From a virus (taxonomy: Duplodnaviria; Caudoviricetes), in IMG/VR virus record IMGVR_UViG_3300016665_000118, positions 1-32,633 of that record: 32,633 nucleotides of DNA, one strand, 5' to 3'. The notes under the pieces are model-generated. The model was not told the origin of the DNA. It worked only from the letters and a program-made list of their open reading frames with translations, and searched no databases. The stretch's first letter is position 1, and every line of letters starts with the position of its first letter. The position numbers and the translations under genes are program-made. Below are positions 2,447 to 32,487 of the stretch, piece by piece.

Positions 2447-4662
2447 TGGCTACTACGCATCCACTGTTGGTTGAGTTTGATGTACCAGAGCCACGCCCCC
2501 AGAAGGGGCGTTTGGCTGTTGCAGGCGATGGAACTACATGGGATATGTATTACTCGTCCAATGTATGGCAAGACCCTGCAACACTAACAGTGATGCTTGC
2601 TCCGCTTCCTGTTACGACAGCATGGGCAACCACGTACAGTGGTAACTACGCGCGGTTTCAGAAGACAGACTACACGCTAACCACAGCGGCTAAGTGGAAA
2701 AACATCCAGATCAAAGCATCCGGAGATTACTACCTTCAATCTTTGGACGTTACCGAACGGGCAACGCTTACGACGGCATGGGCGGCTAACACGGGAGCGT
2801 ACATTTCCATGTATGTTCCAGGATTGAAGGATTCCGATAAAAGCATCATCCTCAAGTGTGGCTGGGGCGTTGGGTCGGCTGGAAGCGTGGAAGTTTGGTT
2901 CGCCGCTAACGGGCAGGCATTGGTCTACAAGTCTGGTGTACTGGTTGGCTCATACGATCGTGGTGATTCAAACGTTGCGCCAAACGTGGGGACACAAAGC
3001 CCTAAAAGCCAACGTTCAGACTTTGTGAGCTTTATGATTATCCCCGGCAGACGCAGGGAGATTATCGTTACCAGTTCAAACGGTACTAACTTTGCTCACG
3101 TCTTTGATGACCTAAACCCGCTCATTGCAAATACCATCTTGCCTAACGCTCAGTTTTCATGGCTGGTTCCATCAGGTCAAGCAACGGTGCAGGTGTCTCG
3201 TGTCTTCTACGAAACGTCAGGGTATGTGCTAACGCCTATTAAGCAGTTTAGATACGCTCCTCCGACAGGTGCGACTTTTAGCAACTTTACATCTGTTGAG
3301 ATTATGGGTAATGGCACGTTTGGATACACGCCATCAGTAGTCAAGACTGATGGGACAACGTACACGCCTAACGGTGTCATAAGTCAGGTCAGAGGCAAGG
3401 TTGCTTTTACTGGTGCAGGCACTGGCTCAAACGGCATCCTATCGGTTGACCTTTATTACGATCCGGAACTTACCGCTACTTACGATGGCACGGTTGACGT
3501 TACCGAATACATCAAGACTCTAAGCCTATCGGTGGATGAGCAAGGCAAGACTACCTGTGACATATCGGCCATTGCGAAGCAGATCGTAGATGCTGGCGTG
3601 GAACAGCCACAGGTGACCAGTGACAGAACCATTCGCATTGCACTTGGTGATGGTGGTTCTCCTGCAACCTACATAGACCTTTTCCGAGGGACGCTTGAGC
3701 CACCTAAGATTGAGTACTTAGACAGGGATACAACCTATCAATGGGCAACATACCGCTGGAATGGTGTAGACCGTAGCCGTGACTTTGACCTTGCTTGGAT
3801 AGTTGAATGCGTACCTTATGACGGTATCTTAGCCATCAATGCCATCATTGACCTAATGCTAATTGCTGGTTACGATGCCAACATCTACTATTACGGAGAT
3901 CAACCACTCCTTGACTTGCCATATACAACAAACATTTCTAAAGGACAGTACACACTAGCTCCTGATTATGGCGATACGGTTGGTTCGTATCTTGAAAAGA
4001 TAAAGCAGGACTACTACGCCACATGGATCACAGGATGGATTCCTGATACGTCTGGTTATGTTTACAGATGGCTCGATGTAGCGTCAGCGTCAACTACGCC
4101 AGCTATGAACCTTTATCAAAGTACGGCAGCGGCAGCGGCGGCAGGTGTGCCAGTAGACTTGCAACCTAAGCGTGTGATACGCAAACTGTCCAGCTATTAC
4201 GAGCCACCGGAATGTACACAGGTTACTGTCATTGGTCAAGACCCGAACACCGGTATCTGGATACCTTATACGCAGATTGATGGTGCTGCGGAGATTGCAG
4301 ACACTCCACCAGCAAGCCGTCCAAGGAACTGGCGTGGAAGACCTGTGCCTTTCCAGTATCGTGACCCAAGCCTAACAACGGCAGATGCAGTGCAGACAGC
4401 GGCACAGATTCTGTATAGCAGGCTTACACCGGGGCGTACGATGATTGAGTGGGAATCGGATCTATTGATTCTAAGCGGTAACAATCGCCCATTATGGCTC
4501 GGTGATGTCATTCAGCTCTATCAGCCTGATGGTGTTACAGCGCAAGGTGTCTATCGAATCATTGCCATACCGTCAATCGAGTTTGAACAGGAGAATGTGG
4601 CAGGCAGGAGTACTCTGTTCAATGTTCGCCGGGCTGTCTACCGTGCAGTGGATGTTTCCTAA
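2446..4662 (+). CDS. Minor tail / tail tip protein (738 aa)
   Basis: Directly after the tape measure gene, TAATG coupled; beta-rich N half and hub-like C half (LWLGDVI motif). Confidence 0.65.
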   Translation: MATTHPLLVEFDVPEPRPQKGRLAVAGDGTTWDMYYSSNVWQDPATLTVMLAPLPVTTAWATTYSGNYARFQKTDYTLTTAAKWKNIQIKASGDYYLQSLDVTERATLTTAWAANTGAYISMYVPGLKDSDKSIILKCGWGVGSAGSVEVWFAANGQALVYKSGVLVGSYDRGDSNVAPNVGTQSPKSQRSDFVSFMIIPGRRREIIVTSSNGTNFAHVFDDLNPLIANTILPNAQFSWLVPSGQATVQVSRVFYETSGYVLTPIKQFRYAPPTGATFSNFTSVEIMGNGTFGYTPSVVKTDGTTYTPNGVISQVRGKVAFTGAGTGSNGILSVDLYYDPELTATYDGTVDVTEYIKTLSLSVDEQGKTTCDISAIAKQIVDAGVEQPQVTSDRTIRIALGDGGSPATYIDLFRGTLEPPKIEYLDRDTTYQWATYRWNGVDRSRDFDLAWIVECVPYDGILAINAIIDLMLIAGYDANIYYYGDQPLLDLPYTTNISKGQYTLAPDYGDTVGSYLEKIKQDYYATWITGWIPDTSGYVYRWLDVASASTTPAMNLYQSTAAAAAAGVPVDLQPKRVIRKLSSYYEPPECTQVTVIGQDPNTGIWIPYTQIDGAAEIADTPPASRPRNWRGRPVPFQYRDPSLTTADAVQTAAQILYSRLTPGRTMIEWESDLLILSGNNRPLWLGDVIQLYQPDGVTAQGVYRIIAIPSIEFEQENVAGRSTLFNVRRAVYRAVDVS

Positions 4663-7595
4663 TGCCTTACCTTGACGGCACACGAACTGCCACGCTCACG
4701 ATGTCGCATACCCAGAACGTACAGGTACGCATCTGGAACCCTTACGCTACTCAGCCTCTCGAACCAGACTACGATACACATTACACAAACTTTACCTTTG
4801 GTGGGCATCTTGGCTTTTCCGGTAGTCTTGCCATTGCCACTAACGTGGTTGCACCTTCTCCAGGTTCTGCATGGTCTTGGGAACTCAGGGCAAATATCAC
4901 GGTAAACAACGGACACGGTTCTACAAACTCGTCCTATGTCGTTTTGTCATCCGGTAGTGAAACCGGAGCCACCACGTACAAAGATGTAAGCGTAACTTGT
5001 GCAGGTGATTTCTCCGCATCGGTTGGAGTGGATAAGCTTTGGGATATTGCTGAGGATTCGTTTTCCTCTACTAGCGCACCAACACGGTTCCCAAGCCTAA
5101 CTGGCTACACATGGTACGAAAAGACCACATCGGGCTCTACAGCGGCTTGTAGCCTATCTGCTGGCGGTGGTTCGGTTAGTGTGTCAGCTGCGGCAACATC
5201 AAGACGAAACGCAGACTATACGGCTACGCTTTCAGCCTATGGTTTTTCCTCCGGTGATGTACGCCATGACTTTGCAGTAAGCCTTGTCAAGGTAAACACG
5301 GTGGCTGTGCATGACATCACACACGCTCACACTTTCCACAACCAATCAGCAACAGAATGGAGCCTAAGCGTACTAGGCGAGACCGATGCTTTTGGGGTTG
5401 TTAGTACGGCATCAGCGACAATTAGCACATCATCCTGTCTCGATCGCAATGTTGTTATTGCTGGAAGAATCAGAGCATGGGAGGGAGCGTATCCCGATGC
5501 TCTCAATGTGGTTGTTACTGGCTACGACGGTGGAACCCGCACCGTTGGTTCATCCAGTGGCAGTTATGGTGCGTCAGATACCTTTGTAAACTACAGCACC
5601 ACCACGGTACTAACCGACCCGACGTACGGAAGCGACACGCTCACAACATCAGCAAATGACGTACCAACGTGGATATCTGCCGAACTATCTGGAAGCGGCC
5701 TAACGACCAACGGAGACTCAAGCACCGACAACCGGGTTCTATTCCGTGGCTTTCGTTTCAATGGCTGGTCTATCGCTGAGACCAACAACAGAAGTATCAG
5801 CGGTACAGGTAACGACCGACTATATGCACCATGGGAAGGGATGTCAGGCTATAGATACCTAGACATTCAAATCAAAGCACAAAGCGGCATAAACCAGACC
5901 GGTTACATCGAACTGACCGATTATCACGGCAATACAAAAAGATGGCAGGTTGTGGCTCCTACGACCTCCTACAGCACGGTTACGCTTGACCTTTGTTCTC
6001 CTGATATCCACAGCCTCGGAGCTTTGCCAGCGACCGATGACAAAGACAACCCGTACCCACGAAAGAACACGGCATCCAGCAGCTACGCAGGAAGCGAGTC
6101 TGTAGATTCGGCATACTGGGGTGTTACATCCTGCCAGCGGTTACGGGTATCCAGCGGATTTATTGACATCGGTACAACCACACTGAAGTACACGAACACG
6201 GATTCTACTTACGTCCCAGATTCTTTCACCGCTCAGTTTCAGCGCATCACACCTGCCATCGTTGCAGAGGTAGACACAACCACCTACTACTACGGGCGCA
6301 GATTCTGGCAACAGGATAGAGATGGACGCACGGAAGAAGAATCAGATGTCTGGTGGCAGATGACCGTGGGCGGTGAAACTGGAGTCACGTCATATAGTGT
6401 TGACCCTGTGACAATCAGCGAGCTGGCAGGACAAATCAACGCCTCCGATGATTCGATTGTTAGGCATCCCGGCTGGACTGCGACCAACTCTGTAGCCTAT
6501 CCGTCTGGTAGCACTTGTACCGTAAGCCAACCGCCTCTAAGGGATTGTTTCCTGAATGGCGTTACTGGTTACTCAACATGGTTGTATGGTGGTGGTATCC
6601 TTGCCACGCCTAACGCCACAAGCGGGACAGACTTTGCGTACGGGCATCAGATAGCACAAGGAACCATTACCGCACAGACGCTCTTTGATCGCATCAATGG
6701 CAACTTCCCACCTGACCTGTACGACCCGTTTGATGTCAACGGCGGTACAGATGCTGCGCTCTATCTGCCTGCTGGTTCTTTACTCCGTGGCATCGCACAT
6801 GGTGCAGTCTTGGATGATGTAGGAGACCCTGCAACTACAGGTACGGTTGACCTAGAGCTTGCAAGCACAGGAGCAAACCGAGGCACAGATTCAACGCTTG
6901 ATGCTGAGGGACGATATTACACGTCCACTCCCTGGGGACTCGGTGAGAGCAACCACGATGCCATCAGCGGTAGCAACAATATAGGCATAGACCCGCTTCA
7001 CACTAGCCACAGATTCCGTTGTTGGTTCCGTACATTGACAGCGGCAGGTGGTTGTCTGTCGGTTGACGTAGCCCCTAACCAGCGGCTTTGTTATGCCAAT
7101 GTGGAAACCCATACCGTGGTGCTTCACTTTGCCGATGGCCCTAACGCCACCAACTTTGTAAGCGTCACAACGCCTATTACAGAGGTTGACTGCGTGGCTA
7201 TCGCATATGACCCAACCAGCCAAAGCGGTAGGCTTTACATCCTCGTTGAGAAACAATCAGGTGGTGGGATTGACTCGTATTACACCGACGATGAAGGAGC
7301 GACAGTATCAGTGGCTACAGTAGTAAGTGCAACAGGCACACACGTCAGCGTTGCCATCAATCCGATGGGCAAACGTATAGTTGCCTTCCGTGGTACTGGT
7401 AACGACCTTCACCGTGTTATCTACGATCCGCAGGGCAACATCATCACGGCATCGAGTGCAGTGGTCGCAAGCGGTGTGAACAATGACCAGACCGCTATAT
7501 CGTGGAGGCTTGGTAACTGGTATCTGTACTACCACGACACATCAGCAGGTATCACGCAGCTGGTCAGTGTGGATGATGGGGAAACATTCGCCTAA
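4662..7595 (+). CDS. Large tail protein, probable receptor-binding/tail tip component (977 aa)
   Basis: Ser/Thr/Gly-rich beta protein, last gene of the tail module; C-terminal SVDDGETF resembles a BNR/Asp-box. Confidence 0.6.
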   Translation: MPYLDGTRTATLTMSHTQNVQVRIWNPYATQPLEPDYDTHYTNFTFGGHLGFSGSLAIATNVVAPSPGSAWSWELRANITVNNGHGSTNSSYVVLSSGSETGATTYKDVSVTCAGDFSASVGVDKLWDIAEDSFSSTSAPTRFPSLTGYTWYEKTTSGSTAACSLSAGGGSVSVSAAATSRRNADYTATLSAYGFSSGDVRHDFAVSLVKVNTVAVHDITHAHTFHNQSATEWSLSVLGETDAFGVVSTASATISTSSCLDRNVVIAGRIRAWEGAYPDALNVVVTGYDGGTRTVGSSSGSYGASDTFVNYSTTTVLTDPTYGSDTLTTSANDVPTWISAELSGSGLTTNGDSSTDNRVLFRGFRFNGWSIAETNNRSISGTGNDRLYAPWEGMSGYRYLDIQIKAQSGINQTGYIELTDYHGNTKRWQVVAPTTSYSTVTLDLCSPDIHSLGALPATDDKDNPYPRKNTASSSYAGSESVDSAYWGVTSCQRLRVSSGFIDIGTTTLKYTNTDSTYVPDSFTAQFQRITPAIVAEVDTTTYYYGRRFWQQDRDGRTEEESDVWWQMTVGGETGVTSYSVDPVTISELAGQINASDDSIVRHPGWTATNSVAYPSGSTCTVSQPPLRDCFLNGVTGYSTWLYGGGILATPNATSGTDFAYGHQIAQGTITAQTLFDRINGNFPPDLYDPFDVNGGTDAALYLPAGSLLRGIAHGAVLDDVGDPATTGTVDLELASTGANRGTDSTLDAEGRYYTSTPWGLGESNHDAISGSNNIGIDPLHTSHRFRCWFRTLTAAGGCLSVDVAPNQRLCYANVETHTVVLHFADGPNATNFVSVTTPITEVDCVAIAYDPTSQSGRLYILVEKQSGGGIDSYYTDDEGATVSVATVVSATGTHVSVAINPMGKRIVAFRGTGNDLHRVIYDPQGNIITASSAVVASGVNNDQTAISWRLGNWYLYYHDTSAGITQLVSVDDGETFA

Positions 7596-7667
7596 GGAAA
7601 AAGAGGCGGTGGGCGGCGAAGATGCAGTTGGGAGACCGCCCACCTAGTCAGGGAGATAAGGACTGAC
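7596..7667 (-). ncRNA. Candidate two-hairpin small RNA with anti-RBS loops
   Basis: Minus-strand TG-A-TATATT (7682-7674), 6 nt, then GUCAG-UCCUUAUCUCC-CUGAC, GGUGGGCGG-loop-CCGCCCACC and CUUUUU. Confidence 0.55.
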
Positions 7668-7684
7668 AAAAGGAATATATCACT

Positions 7685-8221
7685 ATGAGTAGACCTATCG
7701 CTTTACGTGCAGCCAAAGAGGCTATAGATAACGTCGGTGTGCAGGAAGTTGGAGATAACAGGGGCAAGGCTGTTGAGATCTATCAAGCCTCAACAATCCC
7801 ACCTGTTCCACCCGGTAGCCCTTGGTGTGCTGCCTTTGTCGTGTACCGCCTACGGAATGCCGCTCATGACCTAGCCCTTGAGATACCAGCAGACTGGCCA
7901 CGCTCGGCTTACTGTCCCGATCATGGCAACTGGGCACGAAGAACAAAGAACTGGGTTCCGGTCAAGGATGCTGAAGCAGACCCTTCAAAGGTCAGGATTG
8001 GTGACCTCATTTGCTTTTGGTTTGCTCCGCTGAACAGGCTTGCCCACATCGGCATCGTGACGGGTGTTTATCCTTGGGGTGTCAAGACCGTTGAAGGTAA
8101 CACGTCCCCAGAGATGGATGATGAGGACGGCGTAGAGCGTAACGGGGATGGCGTTTACCGCAAAGCCAGAGCATGGCGAGAGCTTGGCAGTAACGGTGGC
8201 TTTATAGCGATTGACTGGTAG
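7685..8221 (+). CDS. CHAP-domain endolysin/amidase
   Basis: PWCAAFV, HIGIV and TVEGNT motifs typical of CHAP domains. Confidence 0.8.
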   Translation: MSRPIALRAAKEAIDNVGVQEVGDNRGKAVEIYQASTIPPVPPGSPWCAAFVVYRLRNAAHDLALEIPADWPRSAYCPDHGNWARRTKNWVPVKDAEADPSKVRIGDLICFWFAPLNRLAHIGIVTGVYPWGVKTVEGNTSPEMDDEDGVERNGDGVYRKARAWRELGSNGGFIAIDW

Positions 8222-8295
8222 GTTCCATTTTGGAACTACCCACTAACTCTTTCCATTTTGGATAAGGTTGAACTTGTAAGAAATCCTTACAAGTT
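8217..8295. repeat. Cluster of short palindromes
   Basis: GTTCCA-TTT-TGGAAC (8222-8236); TTCCATTTTGGA twice (8223, 8251); AACTTGTAAG-N5-CTTACAAGTT (8271-8295). Confidence 0.7.
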
Positions 8296-8311
8296 GACAT
8301 ACATAAACATA

Positions 8312-8343
8312 CAAAAAGACCCAGTTGTTTAGACCGGGTCTTT
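8312..8343 (-). terminator. Intrinsic terminator of the leftward operon (possibly bidirectional)
   Basis: Minus strand reads AAAGACCCGGT-ctaaaca-ACTGGGTCTTTTT. Confidence 0.7.
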
Positions 8344-8400
8344 CTGTCGCTTACCAAGCACCATTTGTGTTGTTTTGTTTTCCCTTGCGGGTGATAGATT

Positions 8401-8970
8401 CTACCCTATTGTTTTGATTGTTACTGCCTGCGTTTCCTCATGCACAACGAACCCTGCCTTCTTTGCATCTGCTGGATGCTCTAGCATGGCTGCCTTGATA
8501 GGCTCAGGCAGTTGGCTTACAAGGATGGATTCTTTCAGTTTGATGGCTGCCGGGCAGTTCTTCTTTGCCCACTCCAAAGCCGTCTCCTCAGCCTCTACAG
8601 CGACCTTAGGAGCTATGGTTCTAAAGCCAACCGTGCCATAGGGGCAAGTCCATGTTTTGGAGCGTAGCGTCCCATCAGCCTTACGTGGCAACTGGCTCAT
8701 TGCGTATTCTGCTAGTTGGCTGTTGTACCGATGCTCCAGCCATTCAAGCCGTGCTTGATGCTTGCCGACGAGTTTCCTGAAGTTCTCTACAATGGCATCC
8801 ATTTTGGCTTTCTCTGCCATGATGTTTGCCTCGATGTCCATACGCTTACGCATCACCAGGAGTGCGAGGTCTTCCGGGCTTTCATCACCCTTGATCCAAC
8901 CGGATGCAGGGCCGGCATACTCGCCCGTTTCTACGTCCCACAGTTCGCCGTCAATCACATCGAATCCCAT
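8401..8970 (-). CDS. Mu Gam-like / Gp157-like DNA end-protection protein
   Basis: Coiled coil followed by KTWTCPYGTVGFR...ALEWAK; in an operon with Erf. Confidence 0.7.
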   Translation of the reverse strand: MGFDVIDGELWDVETGEYAGPASGWIKGDESPEDLALLVMRKRMDIEANIMAEKAKMDAIVENFRKLVGKHQARLEWLEHRYNSQLAEYAMSQLPRKADGTLRSKTWTCPYGTVGFRTIAPKVAVEAEETALEWAKKNCPAAIKLKESILVSQLPEPIKAAMLEHPADAKKAGFVVHEETQAVTIKTIG

Positions 8971-9194
8971 CACTTACCTCCTATCAACTGCTCTGGTGTA
9001 CCTTTGTGCCAATACACATCCTCATACCGATATTCAAAGCAGACCGCATCAAGGTTTTTACCTGCTGGCTTGACCCAGTATCCACGGTCATGCATCGTGA
9101 CAAGCTTGTGGTTTGCGTACTTACCATCGGTGTATGTCATGCCGTACTGCATGGCCCTCTTGAGCAGAAATGCTGCCTCTTCTTTCGTTATCAT
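8970..9194 (-). CDS. Hypothetical protein (MITKEEAAFLLKRAM...)
   Basis: ORF with coupled stop/start junctions on both sides. Confidence 0.65.
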   Translation of the reverse strand: MITKEEAAFLLKRAMQYGMTYTDGKYANHKLVTMHDRGYWVKPAGKNLDAVCFEYRYEDVYWHKGTPEQLIGGK

Positions 9195-9241
9195 AGAACC
9201 ACCTGCCAATCGTCATGCTCTTCCAGTAATTCCTTAACCAT
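9191..9241 (-). CDS. 16-aa mini-ORF MVKELLEEHDDWQVVL (possible gene remnant or coupling peptide)
   Basis: ATG 9241 preceded by AAAGGT; its TGA overlaps the next ATG; it resembles the DDWEVVE end of 9958-10176. Confidence 0.35.
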   Translation of the reverse strand: MVKELLEEHDDWQVVL

Positions 9242-9283
9242 ATTTGGACCTTTTTTATTTGCGGGTCGTCTTCCTCAATCTTG

Positions 9284-9961
9284 TCACCGGTTGATTTCAG
9301 ATGAGTAGTACTTGCCTTTATGCGTCCACACGTAGTCACCTAGCGTCCTTGATACAACTATGGCGTTATCACTCAAAATGAACTTCTGCTTCGCAAATGA
9401 CTCATCCATAGAACCTATGGCGTGTGCTTGCTCAATATCGTTCACTATACAGACAACACTTTCGGATGCGGTGACTTTCACCTTGTTGTCATTACAACTG
9501 ATAATGCTTTGACCCTTGGCTACAACAACGCACGCATTTGGACTGACCAAAACATTCCCGTGAACCTGCAACTTAGAACCAGTAGACTTCACGGTCACTG
9601 ATTCATGTGCTTCTACAGTAGAGCTCACACAATTGACAATTGTTTGACACGTTGCGAAGACTTTAGAATCTTTCGCAAATACAGTTCCACTACAAGCTGT
9701 AATTGTGCAGTCAGTTGCATTAAGGATGATGTTGGTGTTCTCGTCAATATATATCTCTGACTTATATGCTGTGATAGTCCCAGAACTTCCGCTGTCACAA
9801 TTAATTGCAGCATTCTCAGCACTTAGGTTTATTGCAGGGCTTGCACGTACTATGTAGCCTGTATCTTTGACAACTTTGGCTCCTTCGTAGTCAGATCCTG
9901 TCACGCCAGCCTTCAACATGGCACGCTTAAGCAACCACGCTGCTTTTTCTTTCTTTATCAT
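9284..9961 (-). CDS. Hypothetical protein with beta-solenoid-like repeats
   Basis: Repeats such as STVEAHES, SKVFATCQ, VKVTASES; ATGA-coupled start with GGAGG RBS. Confidence 0.65.
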   Translation of the reverse strand: MIKKEKAAWLLKRAMLKAGVTGSDYEGAKVVKDTGYIVRASPAINLSAENAAINCDSGSSGTITAYKSEIYIDENTNIILNATDCTITACSGTVFAKDSKVFATCQTIVNCVSSTVEAHESVTVKSTGSKLQVHGNVLVSPNACVVVAKGQSIISCNDNKVKVTASESVVCIVNDIEQAHAIGSMDESFAKQKFILSDNAIVVSRTLGDYVWTHKGKYYSSEINR

Positions 9962-10176
9962 TCCACTACCTCCCAATCATCTCTAACCTTCTGCGCTTGC
10001 TTGTCGTATAGATCCATTACAGGTGGGCAGTAGGTGTACCGATTACCTGATGTTAGATGCACAACAAGATGGTCTTCACCGATGGCTGAGAGTCTGATTA
10101 CTTTGCCAGACTCCCAAGCCTTACGCCTTATAGCCATACCCTCAAAGAGCCGAGGGTAAACCTGTGCGAATGTCAT
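9958..10176 (-). CDS. DUF2829/Tad2-like small protein
   Basis: Pattern MTFxQ...GxxIRRKAW...DL...DDWEVV. Confidence 0.6.
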   Translation of the reverse strand: MTFAQVYPRLFEGMAIRRKAWESGKVIRLSAIGEDHLVVHLTSGNRYTYCPPVMDLYDKQAQKVRDDWEVVE

Positions 10177-10658
10177 CGTGATAACGGCCTTGCGGTTGCT
10201 GGTCTTACTGGCTCATCAATAACAATGTTGCCGTGTGAGCCTCTACGATAGCCATCCTGAGGCGTTACCGCTCCGTTAGCGTCATCATCCTCATCTGCTG
10301 ATATAGCGAGCAGAGCGGACACAGAATATCTGCGACCATAAGTAAGAGCTGAACCAAGACCGTGAGCATCTGGTTTTGTTACCGGGATGGTTACCGTGGT
10401 TGCGATCCATTCACCGGAGGTGTGGATGATTCGTGACTCTACGGTTACAGCCTGCATGGTCTCAGGTTGTTGGCTGCCCTGCGTAAGCATCAAGCCGTTT
10501 GATGTCAGGATAGGGCGCAATGTGTCCAAGATGCTGTCAAGTGTTACATACTTAGATCTAAAGGCTGGGTTCTTGCCTTCCTTGATGATGCCCTGCATCT
10601 GGCTTTGTGCCTTGATGAGGGCTGGGGCGATTGCCCCAATGGTTTCCGATGTTGTCAT
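10173..10658 (-). CDS. erf: Erf-family single-strand annealing protein
   Basis: ALIKAQ..KEGKNPAFRSKYVTLDSI..HTSGEWI..GSALTYGRRYSVSALLAI..DDDAN. Confidence 0.9.
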   Translation of the reverse strand: MTTSETIGAIAPALIKAQSQMQGIIKEGKNPAFRSKYVTLDSILDTLRPILTSNGLMLTQGSQQPETMQAVTVESRIIHTSGEWIATTVTIPVTKPDAHGLGSALTYGRRYSVSALLAISADEDDDANGAVTPQDGYRRGSHGNIVIDEPVRPATARPLSR

Positions 10659-10708
10659 TACTTATCTCCGACCTTTTTGTTGATGCCACCAAAATGGTTG
10701 CTTGGTTC

Positions 10709-10999: not shown

Positions 11000-11021
11000 A
11001 AGGTAATAGGGAGACAAGGCA

Positions 11022-13629: not shown

Positions 13630-13815
13630 TTATGCAAGTCTGCAGATGAGCGATGCTTCATTCGCTGCAGTAACAACTTGCTGAAAGTTGTCAGCAGGGA
13701 TTGTAAAGCTGACTGCTCCAGCTCCGAGTTTTTCAGCAAGCCACATTTTGGCATTGTCGCTAACTGCGGTAACGGTGATTTCGCCATTGGCGATGGTGGT
13801 GTAGGTGAGATCCAT
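13630..13815 (-). CDS. Small hypothetical protein (61 aa), moron 1
   Basis: AAGGAG RBS; has its own promoter and terminator. Confidence 0.75.
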   Translation of the reverse strand: MDLTYTTIANGEITVTAVSDNAKMWLAEKLGAGAVSFTIPADNFQQVVTAANEASLICRLA

Positions 13816-13875
13816 TTCTGGTCTCCTTTCTGCCGAAGCGTCGGCTGCGAAGTTTCTAGTGCTTTCCACACACTG

Positions 13876-17475: not shown

Positions 17476-17535
17476 TAACGGGTAACTTGAAAAGGACAGG
17501 GGCTAACGCTCCTGTCCACCTTGGGAGATAAGAAC

Positions 17536-17871: not shown

Positions 17872-18104
17872 ACGAACACTACCGAACAACACAGATACAA
17901 GCCATCGATGTTATTCAGGATTGGGGTTTAAACTTTGCCTTAGGTAACGTTGTTAAGTATCTGCAACGTTGCCCTCATAAAGGCAAGTCGCGTGAAGATG
18001 CCATTAAGGCTCTCTGGTATTTAGCATTTGAAGTAACGGGCGATGGCAAATACGCAGATCGAGTAATCAAAGAAGTGGATGAAATAAATGCCACGACCAA
18101 GTGA
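17868..18104 (+). CDS. DUF3310-family protein
   Basis: HY..IQAIDVI..LNFALGNVVKYL.R..K..EDAIKALWYL. Confidence 0.85.
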   Translation: MNEHYRTTQIQAIDVIQDWGLNFALGNVVKYLQRCPHKGKSREDAIKALWYLAFEVTGDGKYADRVIKEVDEINATTK

Positions 18105-18498
18105 GAGCGTTGCCTATGGCATCGCAAAACGAAAGTTATTGCTGGAACGCTGGGATGAGCTGGTAGCAATGGGGATGCCACAAGCGCAGGCATCCAAAGA
18201 GATTGGTTACAACTACTCCACGGTAAAGGTTTGGCTTGCTAACCGACAGGTTGAGCAGTTGAAAGAAGAAGATGCCAAGCGACTAACAATGGCTGGTGGT
18301 TCCTTCTCGGCTGCCCTTGAACGCCTGAGAGCGGGACAGGCGGTAAGGCGGCACGGAGCTTCTTGGTTCCTTGAGTTGGTTGATGGCAAGATATGCCTGT
18401 ATCTGATTGATGGTGCAGGTAATCGCAGGTACAGCCGGGTGGCATCATTCGGATCCGCTGATGTACTTGCTACCGACTGGGAGATATACCAACCATGA
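18088..18498 (+). CDS. HTH domain fused to a DUF2829/Tad2-like domain
   Basis: GMPQAQASKEIGYNYSTVKVWL, then SFSAALERLRAGQAVRR...DVLATDWEI. Confidence 0.65.
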   Translation: MPRPSESVAYGIAKRKLLLERWDELVAMGMPQAQASKEIGYNYSTVKVWLANRQVEQLKEEDAKRLTMAGGSFSAALERLRAGQAVRRHGASWFLELVDGKICLYLIDGAGNRRYSRVASFGSADVLATDWEIYQP

Positions 18499-18769
18499 CA
18501 GGATTAGAAGCATTCATAGCTTGCACAGAAGGTCAACGAGTTAGAAGAACTAAATGGCAAACCGGTATTTATTGCGTGGCTGCTGCATCTTCAAACTATC
18601 ACCGCATCAGGATTGCACTTGACAAAATTAGTTTTTCATTCATCTTGACTCATGATCATGAAGACTTCGATTCCTGCTTTGATAAAGAGACAGGCAGGCC
18701 TACACAACTTTGCCAAGTAAATGCAGGAGACTTTATGTATAACGACTGGGAGATATACCAACCATGACA
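18474..18769 (+). repeat. 27-bp exact direct repeat flanking one gene
   Basis: CGACTGGGAGATATACCAACCATGACA at 18474-18500 and 18743-18769. Confidence 0.95.
18495..18767 (+). CDS. DUF2829/Tad2-like protein
   Basis: MTGLEA....EGQRVRRTKW...DFMYNDWEI. Confidence 0.6.
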   Translation: MTGLEAFIACTEGQRVRRTKWQTGIYCVAAASSNYHRIRIALDKISFSFILTHDHEDFDSCFDKETGRPTQLCQVNAGDFMYNDWEIYQP

Positions 18770-19150: not shown

Positions 19151-19776
19151 CAAAGCTTATCTGGATTACACCGGAAGCGGAGAAGGTCATCGGATACTGC
19201 GCAAGGGTAAGCAACCCAAAGAACCAAGATAACCCTGATGTTGCTAAGCTTCTGTCCTACTGCATCAAGCATGGGCACTGGTCTATCTTTGAGATGGCCA
19301 GTATGTGCGTTGGAATCAAAACAACCCGTGCTATTGCTCCGCAGATTCTTAGGCATCGGTCATTCTCTTTTCAAGAGTTTAGCCAAAGGTATGCACAGGT
19401 TCCTACAGAGCCTATTCTTGGCGATATGCGGCTTGCAGGTACAACCAACCGACAATCATCCCAACCATTGCCAGAATGGAAAGAGTTGGATGAAAACCTA
19501 CAGGATGCTATTGATCGGGCATCGCTTGCAGTAGAGGGTTCTTACTACGCTTACAACAGGCTAATCGATGCTGGCATTGCTGCGGAGACGGCAAGAATGG
19601 TGCTACCTCTTTGCACACCAACCACAATGTATATGTCTGGCACGATACGGTCTTGGATCCATTACGTGCAGCTACGAACGCAGGAAGACACACAACTAGA
19701 ACACAGACAGATTGTAGAGTCCATCAAGGCTTTGATGGTTGAGCATCTGCCAATAACGATGGGAGTAATAGGATGA
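19147..19776 (+). CDS. thyX: FAD-dependent thymidylate synthase
   Basis: CARVS, HGHWSIFE, QILRHRSFSFQEFSQRY, ARMVLP. Confidence 0.95.
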   Translation: MTKLIWITPEAEKVIGYCARVSNPKNQDNPDVAKLLSYCIKHGHWSIFEMASMCVGIKTTRAIAPQILRHRSFSFQEFSQRYAQVPTEPILGDMRLAGTTNRQSSQPLPEWKELDENLQDAIDRASLAVEGSYYAYNRLIDAGIAAETARMVLPLCTPTTMYMSGTIRSWIHYVQLRTQEDTQLEHRQIVESIKALMVEHLPITMGVIG

Positions 19777-20018
19777 AGTACAACCAGGCAATAGATGCAT
19801 TGCTTGCTGAGAAGCCAATACGGCGGGCTTTCTGGCCTGAAGGGCTACACTTTCGCTTTAGTGAACTTTGGGACACATTCAGCGTTGCAGAGGGTACAGA
19901 GGTAAAGGAAAACAATAGTGTTATCTGGCTTACTGCTGGTGACCTGTTCGCCGATGACTGGATGATCGGTAAGTACAACCCGATTACCGGGGAACCGATA
20001 TGGGAGGAATCCAAATGA
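19773..20018 (+). CDS. DUF2829/Tad2-like protein
   Basis: MKYNQAIDALLAEKPIRRAFW...WLTAGDLFADDWMI. Confidence 0.65.
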   Translation: MKYNQAIDALLAEKPIRRAFWPEGLHFRFSELWDTFSVAEGTEVKENNSVIWLTAGDLFADDWMIGKYNPITGEPIWEESK

Positions 20019-22168: not shown

Positions 22169-22197
22169 ATTGACATCAAGCAGGGAGATAGAAAGAT

Positions 22198-22485: not shown

Positions 22486-22496
22486 TGTGGGATACT
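22486..22496 (+). promoter_or_regulatory. Late promoter motif TGTGGGATACT (portal, leaderless)
   Basis: Exact 11-mer, 6 nt before ATG 22503. Confidence 0.7.
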
Positions 22497-25277: not shown

Positions 25278-25288
25278 TGTGGGATACT
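25278..25288 (+). promoter_or_regulatory. Late promoter motif TGTGGGATACT (protease/capsid, leaderless)
   Basis: Exact 11-mer, 6 nt before ATG 25295. Confidence 0.7.
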
Positions 25289-27615: not shown

Positions 27616-27626
27616 TGTGGGATACT
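27616..27626 (+). promoter_or_regulatory. Late promoter motif TGTGGGATACT (neck operon, leaderless)
   Basis: Exact 11-mer, 6 nt before ATG 27633. Confidence 0.7.
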
Positions 27627-31601: not shown

Positions 31602-32008
31602 GTACACAAGTAAGTTTGAAAACTGTTTCCATTGACCATTACATAAACAATCTAGACAAGGTCACTAAGATTGTCGGTAAAGCTGCGGCAGATGTTGAAG
31701 CCAACGCAAAGAACAGTATTACCAAAAGTGGTGGACGCTATCGCAAGTACGGTAACCACTGGTCAAGCCGTCCCGGCAAAGCACCAAACAACGATACTGG
31801 AAACCTTGCAGGAAGCATCATGCATCAGATGAAGTCCAGAACTTCAGCTGTTGTTTATGTTGTTGCAAAGTATGCCGTACCTCTAGAGTTTGGTTGGACA
31901 AGCAATGGCGGTAATACAGTGCCACCAAGACCGTTCCTGAACCCAGCATTGGAGAAGGTCAAACCAGCATTTGTCAAAGCACTTACAAAAGTACTAAAGG
32001 GTAAATAA
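31598..32008 (+). CDS. HK97 gp10-like tail completion protein
   Basis: DTGNLAGSI, YAVPLEFG, PRPFLNPA. Confidence 0.85.
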   Translation: MSTQVSLKTVSIDHYINNLDKVTKIVGKAAADVEANAKNSITKSGGRYRKYGNHWSSRPGKAPNNDTGNLAGSIMHQMKSRTSAVVYVVAKYAVPLEFGWTSNGGNTVPPRPFLNPALEKVKPAFVKALTKVLKGK

Positions 32009-32487
32009 TGGCATACGAACCAGCCGTCATAGAGCAATGGATTTACGAGACCCTAAGCGGTGATGCTACGCTTTCTGGTCTGCTTGCCGTTGATAACAAA
32101 CCTGATGGTTATCAGATGGGCATCTATAACACCGTTGCTCCTCAACTCGACCCGATCAGCAGGAAGCCTGTACAAGTGCCTTACGTGGTGTTCAGTCGTG
32201 ATGGTTCAGGCAGTGATGATGAAGACACGCTATGCGGTGGCAGGGCTTTCACGTACCCAAACTATAGAATCACGGTGTGGGATACTGAAAGTGGTGCGAT
32301 AAGCATGAGCAGGATACAAACTATCATGTCTCGCATAGACACACTTTTGGATAATCAAACGGTAACCAGTACAACTCCAAGGCTATATGTACGACGGGTT
32401 TCAACGGATCAAACCTTTGCTTTATCTGATGGTGGTCGGACGGATTACGGGGTGACAGCGGTCTATCGCTGCCTCACACAGCAGTAG
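32008..32487 (+). CDS. Tail terminator protein
   Basis: IYETLSGDATL, PYVVFS, ITVW; precedes the major tail protein. Confidence 0.75.
   Translation: MAYEPAVIEQWIYETLSGDATLSGLLAVDNKPDGYQMGIYNTVAPQLDPISRKPVQVPYVVFSRDGSGSDDEDTLCGGRAFTYPNYRITVWDTESGAISMSRIQTIMSRIDTLLDNQTVTSTTPRLYVRRVSTDQTFALSDGGRTDYGVTAVYRCLTQQ
32276..32286 (+). promoter_or_regulatory. Late promoter motif TGTGGGATACT (intragenic, about 210 nt before the major tail gene)
   Basis: Fourth exact copy, on the same strand. Confidence 0.5.

Follow-up and report, generated by a model that had tools for sequence, protein, structure and literature searches.

A freshwater phage carries, downstream of a tail gene that stops at 7595 and ahead of a CHAP endolysin gene that starts at 7685, a short element whose minus strand reads like a small transcription unit. 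The window, i.e., the whole stretch of DNA analyzed (32,633 nt), is a complete virus record (32.6 kb) of a tailed phage with profile matches to capsid, portal, terminase, its own sigma-70 factor, Erf, Gam, ThyX and several Tad2-like proteins. This family of freshwater phages is distant from named phages: none matched window 5500-10500 at the DNA level, and the capsid and terminase matches are remote (best 24% and 36% among the matches listed). Searches for a host through sigma homologues and cluster names gave none, and the atlas returned HTH families only. No integrase or clear partition system was found in 46 window ORFs and 72 family representatives (ParB-like matches fell on a methylase only), and the sole regulator of the HTH type found in the protein scans was a small Cro-like protein. 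The initial annotation proposed a minus-strand small RNA that silences early genes by pairing with their ribosome-binding sites (RBSs). The feature is real and conserved, and, judged from its sequence, we regard it as probably a trans-acting anti-RBS small RNA that would repress non-structural genes through a co-evolving target code.

All sequences quoted in the initial annotation were found at their positions, and the parts of the putative unit are collected in Table 1. The predicted 72-nt RNA folds as two hairpins with open loops (z -4.9; 0/200 shuffles), and hairpin 2 is likely a terminator stem that also presents a second anti-SD loop. No -35 box was found upstream of the predicted -10 box. 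An Rfam search of the window (E up to 1) assigned no family to the element and gave two unrelated terminator-like matches elsewhere, and the same search on five clade B and C loci returned one tRNA and nothing else. Expression data from nine runs (shares <=0.25) consist of contigs only and are silent on strand or ends; the RNA libraries X6 and X7 contain relatives, at a depth that is blind to strand, ends and level and with DNA carry-over possible.

Table 1. Positions of the predicted small RNA, its flanking genes and its candidate target sites in the window.
Feature	Position	Strand	Remarks
Tail/structural gene bounding the element	4662..7595	+	Synteny conserved; no PHROG or Pfam family
Endolysin, CHAP domain	7685..8221	+	Leader is the exact complement of the predicted RNA
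Predicted extended -10 promoter TGATATATT (TGA-TATATT)	7674..7682	-	Overlaps spacer of lysin RBS; followed by 6 nt
Predicted 72-nt small RNA, putative +1 at G7667	7596..7667	-	From fold; conserved in relatives
Hairpin 1, GTCAG[TCCTTATCTCC]CTGAC	7647..7667	-	11-nt loop UCCUUAUCUCC, the main seed
Hairpin 2, GGTGGGCGG...CCGCCCACC	7608..7644	-	9-bp stem, variable C-rich loop
Pyrimidine/U tail, T-rich	7596..7607	-	TTTT in 24/46 relatives
Predicted wobble target AGGAGGTAAG, before Gam-like gene	8973..8982	-	GGGAGATAAG in orthologues of some relatives
Predicted target, erf RBS GGAGATAAG	10661..10669	-	Rank 3 of 44
Predicted imperfect target AGGGAGACAAGG, before gene 11022	11008..11019	+	GGAGATAA in many orthologues
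Weak predicted target GGAGACC, before small gene at 13815	13820..13826	-	7 nt only; loop 2 and its stem
Predicted target, RBS GGGAGATAAG of gene 17536	17523..17532	+	Rank 1 of 44
Predicted target GGGAGATA, before Tad2-like gene 18495	18479..18486	+	
Predicted target GGGAGATA, before DUF3307 gene	18748..18755	+	
Predicted target, RBS CAGGGAGATA of gene 22198	22181..22190	+	Rank 5 of 44
Late-type leaderless promoter TGTGGGATACT of portal	22486..22496	+	Also 25278-25288 and 27616-27626; genes without seed match

The complete minus-strand unit, made up of a -10 box, a 6-nt spacer, hairpins whose loops are C/U-rich and a pyrimidine tail, was recovered at 46/48 clade A lysin loci, the two exceptions being one truncated locus and one from another phage; many of the loci are near-copies, so such locus tallies are not independent. 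A scan with a degenerate pattern gave 49 matches, three of which, beyond the lysin set, are chance matches. In 46/46 clade A loci exactly 6 nt, which come in seven variants, separate TATA[T/C]T from GTC, and within loop 1 TTATCTCCC is unchanged in 20/20 aligned variants. Stem 1 is GTCAG/CTGAC in 8 of the 46 loci and GTCG/CGAC in 38, and in the stem 2 alignment 98.9% of cells are paired, with double changes at three pairs (0/500 shuffles as high). The U tract described in the initial annotation is less constant than implied (TTTT <=14 nt from the stem in 24/46), but at least nine pyrimidines per 12 nt occur in 46/46. Clade B was found via a binned contig, and its lysins are ~56% identical. The second lysin search yielded 80 loci (61 clade B, 2 clade C, 1 clade A and 16 other phages), and the 16 loci with related lysins from other phages are without the unit. 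All 61 clade B loci carry TATA[C/A]T exactly 6 nt (five spacer variants) before GTCCAA, a C/U-rich seed, a 10-bp stem and, on the antisense strand, 7-8 T within 9 nt after the stem. The predicted antisense terminator is clean in clade B and weaker in clade A. An own promoter and an intrinsic terminator, as in 6C/Rsa-type sRNAs, are thus indicated by sequence conservation only.

Further afield, L377 and L392 combine an A-type seed with another scaffold and a clean U-tract terminator, and a metagenome scan inspected by eye added the boxes TATAGT and TATCCT. No unit was seen by eye at the tail junctions of L393, L395, L426 and L439-L441. In clade F (L378, L400, L425, L429) the unit is present and its loops read CCCC; support is thin, with two starts checked per locus. 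Hairpins whose loops are CCCC or ACCUCCC, together with a -10 box and a 6-nt spacer, are present in the distant relatives L378, L400, L425, L429 and L434, in four of which the next gene is not a lysin.

The target sites listed in the initial annotation are all present in the window, including the GGAGACC of its moron gene at 13826 (minus strand). Loop 1 pairs over at least 8 bases with 5/44 called window starts, a level that shuffled loops reached in 2/2000 trials, or in 19/2000 when the CTCC core was kept. When the 44 starts were ranked with accessibility, the top eight were all non-structural (p 0.013), and the orthologues of the top-ranked gene match at >=7 bases in 12/12 cases. The leaderless late operon heads that had been described were confirmed, as the portal, protease and decoration genes sit behind TGTGGGATACT-N6-ATG. 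Loop-2 matches outside the SD (TGCAGTTGG before DUF3310) were rejected, as they occur in the window only. Three features of these regions were observed in passing. The RBS of gene 17536 (window 17505-17532) is preceded in most orthologues by its own complement (CCTCCCAAC...TTGGGAG), forming a cis hairpin over the site. Identical 22-nt junctions ending in ATG (GACTGGGAGATATACCAACCATG at 18476 and 18745; window 18476-18497 and 18745-18766) lead into two different genes, and the same junction precedes thyX in relatives, which suggests cassette shuffling. A fourth TGTGGGATACT lies at 32276-32286, inside the gene at 32008 and without an ATG 6 nt downstream.

Targets were then surveyed in the longer records (19 of 36 in clade A, and all 20 from clades B and C), with genes called by a codon model blind to the RBS; the start counts are lower bounds because some short genes were missed (e.g., the B1 'MDIK' gene), and families 44 and 45 (opposite strand, behind the lysin) were classed as non-structural and 31 as structural by reassignment after the first tally. 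A Watson-Crick helix of at least 8 with the own seed was found at 117/494 non-structural versus 0/338 structural starts in clade A, or 31/94 versus 0/20 when counted by family (Fisher p 0.0015). The corresponding values were 8/135 versus 0/125 in B1, 11/102 versus 0/81 in B2, 3/63 versus 0/54 in B3 and 6/42 versus 0/29 in C, where the eight B1 matches belong to one family (helicase) and the TAG of their motif is the primase stop codon. In clade A, 107/117 matched starts have no upstream stop codon in the start window. GGGAGATA is the top 8-mer of the non-structural start windows (23 families); 21 copies lie in the element, 88 before an ATG-opened ORF and 11 elsewhere, so that outside the element it precedes such an ORF in 88/99 cases (20 records; reversed control 0/5). 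Structural genes are leaderless or have a non-matching SD (e.g., the major tail gene). The accessibility ranking of a B2 genome likewise placed non-structural starts at the top (the first 6 of 36), and the clade A helicase and primase have no seed match. As in 6C/Rsa RNAs, an unpaired C-rich loop is therefore complementary to the RBSs of several mRNAs. The suggestion that targets are mostly promoter-proximal did not hold: a host-type promoter pattern <=140 nt away accompanies only 27/117 matched starts, an enrichment over the 19/377 unmatched ones.

Covariation of loop and RBS in related phages, the check put forward in the initial annotation, was found across lineages. The seeds are CUUAUCUCCC (A), CCUAGUCC (B1), CCUAAUCCUC (B2, B3), ACCUCCUG (C) and UCCUUCC (D, L364), and the RBS motifs follow them by lineage as GGGAGATAA, GGACTAGG, AGGATTAGG, CAGGAGG and GGAAGGA. 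Foreign seeds performed far worse, with the B seeds matching 0-3/494 clade A starts and the A seed matching 1/135 in B1, 0/102 in B2, 4/63 in B3 and 2/42 in C. In one gene family, the sites are of the GGAGATAA type in clade A members, and clade B members carry AGGATTAGG. At the helicase gene, the RBS is GACTAGG in 19/19 CCUAGUCC (B1) loci, GAGGATTAG in 9/9 B2 loci and CAGGAGGTTG in 2/2 clade C genomes; monophyly of the CCUAGUCC group is rejected in the tree of helicase coding sequences (p-AU 1.5e-7), so the link between seed and RBS, the latter outside the aligned part, survives recombination. In clade D, GGAAGGA stands at helicase, primase and erf, i.e., at 3/11 homology-confirmed starts, versus 3/494 in A and 5/102 in B2. 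B1 genomes, whose seed has a G, contain both GGACTAGG (13) and GGATTAGG (4) sites, and B2 genomes, whose seed has an A, contain 0 and 17, respectively, an asymmetry expected from G-U pairing. The clade B terminator loop ACCCC matches sites of the AGGGG type at primase and at two further genes, and these sites are rare in clade A.

The fit is uneven. In B3 it is poor, the seed matching one RBS (GGATTAGG) and the A-type GGGAGATA standing at four starts, so GGGAGATA is also an ordinary RBS within the family. The 'MDIK' gene has a mismatch in its B2 orthologue (GGAATAGG) and no match in its B3 orthologue, and the clade C seed adds little because it is close to the ordinary anti-SD. Plain duplex energy is unspecific and did not separate own from foreign RNA in B1-B3; the window RNA scores -11.7 and -11.2 on two B2 genome starts. 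Within clade A, no covariation was detected between loop 2 and its targets (14 versus 13.2 permuted; 2272/5000), and only some four or five of the lineage changes are independent. The objection that GGAGATAAG is merely the usual RBS of the host is nevertheless weakened, both by the 0/338 structural 8-base matches and by the sister lineages, whose own motifs match their own RNA.

Taken as a prediction, a minus-strand sRNA pairing with non-structural RBSs is supported by the -10 box and its spacing, the clade B antisense terminator and the covariation. Since loop and sites change jointly across lineages, the RNA likely lowers translation of that gene set by pairing. RNA pairing over the GGA core near an ATG is expected to block ribosome loading, and the predicted helices would cover this core 4-12 nt upstream of the ATG and would repress rather than activate. 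Replication, recombination and anti-defence proteins would be damped, while leaderless and non-matching structural genes would escape. The RNA, complementary to the lysin leader (Table 1), may also delay lysin synthesis in cis. The timing proposed in the initial annotation, an early-to-late switch, is unproven because the promoter looks host/early-type: the -10 box of the RNA (TATA[T/C/A/G]T) looks like the host-type promoter that serves the HTH gene. This box is similar across clades and the late promoters are not (portal promoters GATACT in A, CACAAT in B and CATAAT in C), so the RNA probably depends on a sigma factor of the host and would serve as a brake of rising strength that is not strictly late. 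It would be made by the main sigma factor of the host from early infection and accumulate over time. An early-to-late hand-over is the likeliest purpose, with chances that we put at about even.

The same mechanism could serve another end. The RNA may be real and pair as predicted, with immunity or a carrier state as its purpose, such that a resident phage silences its own early genes or those of incoming kin and changes of seed define exclusion groups. This account, which overlaps with a non-structural brake because the mechanism is shared and the purpose differs, draws on the host/early-type promoter, on seeds and sites that are clade-specific and on the precedent of c4 for heteroimmunity between P1 and P7 (PMC12197685). 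We consider it unlikely, given that the scanned proteins include no integrase or clear partition system and only the small Cro-like HTH protein.

Alternatively, the motif could be read by a protein, as a binding or cleavage site on mRNA (CsrA-like or RegB-like), with the element a plus-strand lysin leader or decoy and a shift in specificity explaining the covariation. T4 RegB cuts GGAG in early mRNAs (PMC1702504), and the plus strand of the element folds as well (z -3.8) with GGA in its loops, so the strand is not decided by folding alone; by eye, 38/46 loci would allow stem 1 one more G-U pair if it forms on the plus strand. This leaves unexplained the antisense -10 box at fixed spacing, the antisense U tract, and the G-U asymmetry between B1 and B2 sites. 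The box is kept where the lysin start moves 3 nt and also where the lysin SD is lost (L235), and both alignments have G-U pairs valid on the antisense strand only (one in A4, three in A5). Between lineages the motif shifts from GGAG to GGAC, GGAU and GGAA, and no RegB or CsrA family match was found among the scanned proteins. CsrA/Rsm recognition calls for loops of the mRNA strand that carry A(N)GGA; loop 1 fits this motif at 8/46 clade A loci and not at the 38 GTCGGGAG loci, and clade B has AGGA. A protein reader is improbable.

We give a low probability to there being no regulator at all, in which case a lineage-favourite RBS would have spread by module shuffling and the lysin leader would be a relic copy inside a terminator. 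The repeated junctions, the use of GGGAGATA in B3 and the few independent changes speak for such a history; it does not account for a loop that is invariant amid varying flanks with no start codon behind it, survives a change of scaffold and follows the RBS in four or more lineages. Stoperators of cluster A phages are DNA sites at which a bound phage repressor blocks elongation, and that the sites here are operators of this type for the HTH protein, with hairpins that merely terminate leftward early transcription, is very improbable: the sites are asymmetric and co-oriented with transcription and an HTH gene is present, but they span 7-10 nt only and sit at SD distance from an ATG (88/99), the element of clades A, C and D exposes the motif as an unpaired loop, and the window has a terminator already (8347-8311).

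For the anti-RBS small RNA favored here, the closest known relatives are bacterial. The Rsa RNAs of S. aureus and LhrC of Listeria are reportedly C-rich-loop sRNAs with a UCCC mechanism. The 6C sRNA of M. tuberculosis also carries C-rich loops (PMC6486639). Like these, the window RNA would be a small two-hairpin RNA whose C-rich single-stranded loops are predicted to bind G-rich sites of many mRNAs; unlike them, it is phage-encoded, aimed at the genes of the phage itself, matched by no Rfam family and equipped with a seed that changes together with the RBS. Among phages, Sar of P22 is said to be a precedent for antisense RNA. The c4 antisense RNA of P1/P7 has loops that pair near an RBS and block translation, and it controls an antirepressor mRNA in a temperate immunity region (PMC12197685). 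Predicted pairing of phage RNA loops near the RBS and a specificity that differs between related phages through loop and target changes are common to both, whereas here the targets are many and unrelated (31/94 clade A non-structural families) and no integrase or antirepressor match was found. The endoribonuclease RegB of T4 recognizes a GGAG-centred signal and shuts down early phage mRNAs as a class (PMC1702504). A GGAG-centred signal also marks a class of phage mRNAs here, but RegB is a protein nuclease without a match in these phages, and the motif is lineage-specific, with GGAC, GGAT and GGAA in clades B/D. Known class-wide shut-off of early phage mRNAs is the work of proteins (T4 RegB), and the phage antisense RNAs in the literature covered hit one or a few genes. 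In that literature (mainly open-access, supplements aside), we found no description of a phage RNA that recognizes, among the genes of its own phage, an RBS set particular to the lineage. The initial statement that no genome-wide RBS code like this is known needs qualifying in that precedents exist which are protein-based (T4 RegB) or orphan (the sequences of cluster K described below). If confirmed, an evolving RBS code that belongs to one phage RNA would represent a novel means of defining a regulon, and the natural seed/RBS pairs are ready compensatory alleles for reporters and possible orthogonal translation switches.

Cluster K mycobacteriophages have Start-Associated Sequences (SAS), an asymmetric repeat at the RBS of non-structural genes with an unknown partner, and the cited sections of the SAS papers describe no RNA partner (PMC3203893, PMC11373665, PMC12699233). 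Four K1 phages have one SAS in reverse orientation, and whether the partner is an RNA or a protein was left open (PMC3203893). Like SAS, the motifs described here are asymmetric repeats at non-structural RBSs whose conservation goes beyond 16S pairing (assuming the usual CCUCC core); unlike them, SAS has a 13-bp consensus, GGGATAGGAGCCC, which is unrelated to the lineage motifs given above. The lone reverse SAS is intergenic (L475:33683-33695 in Adephagia, L476:34871-34883 in Anaya), and on the transcribed strand of both phages CTCCTATCC forms the unpaired tip of a long hairpin, which follows a second strong hairpin. This region has matches in 169 mycobacteriophage records. Nine records were folded, and the 9-mer was fully unpaired in 4/4 Anayavirus (L475, L476, L477, L483) despite stem changes; Hammy, Unicorn and Bryler have a variant C-rich sequence at the loop position, and the Keshuvirus records Keshu and TBond007 have no C-rich loop at the equivalent place. 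No Rfam family matched this hairpin. As a lead from sequence, its loop may be an anti-SAS RNA. This would give the SAS puzzle, unsolved since 2011, a direct hypothesis that can be tested in phages already in culture and with stranded RNA-seq available. More tentatively, and with some doubt on our part, a lineage-specific RBS barcode read by one co-evolving phage sRNA might silence whole non-structural regulons as a general, overlooked layer of timing or kin exclusion, with cluster K SAS, read by the anti-SAS hairpin near the right genome end, as its cultured example.

Several other features of these genomes were recorded. Four weak matches to Tad2-like (Thoeris anti-defence) domains fall at window 9958-10176, 18088-18767 and 19773-20018. 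A relative (L135:5611-8563; G014) has GTP cyclohydrolase, QueE-like and tRNA-ribosyltransferase-like genes, likely a deazaguanine DNA-modification module, and one clade B3 record has a tRNA gene directly after the lysin (L237:6160-6244). A GTDB scan located a contig of this phage family (L057/L185, G034:C30) inside a MAG titled 'uncultured archaeon', where it was probably mis-binned. Finally, arrays of short AAG-N5-CTT palindromes (e.g., AACTTGTAAG-AAATC-CTTACAAGTT) are neighbors of the lysin gene in clades A to D (window 8268-8297, L185:11116-11190 and the L243 and L364 junctions). Their number varies, as does the side of the gene on which they lie, and they are possible operators or an origin.
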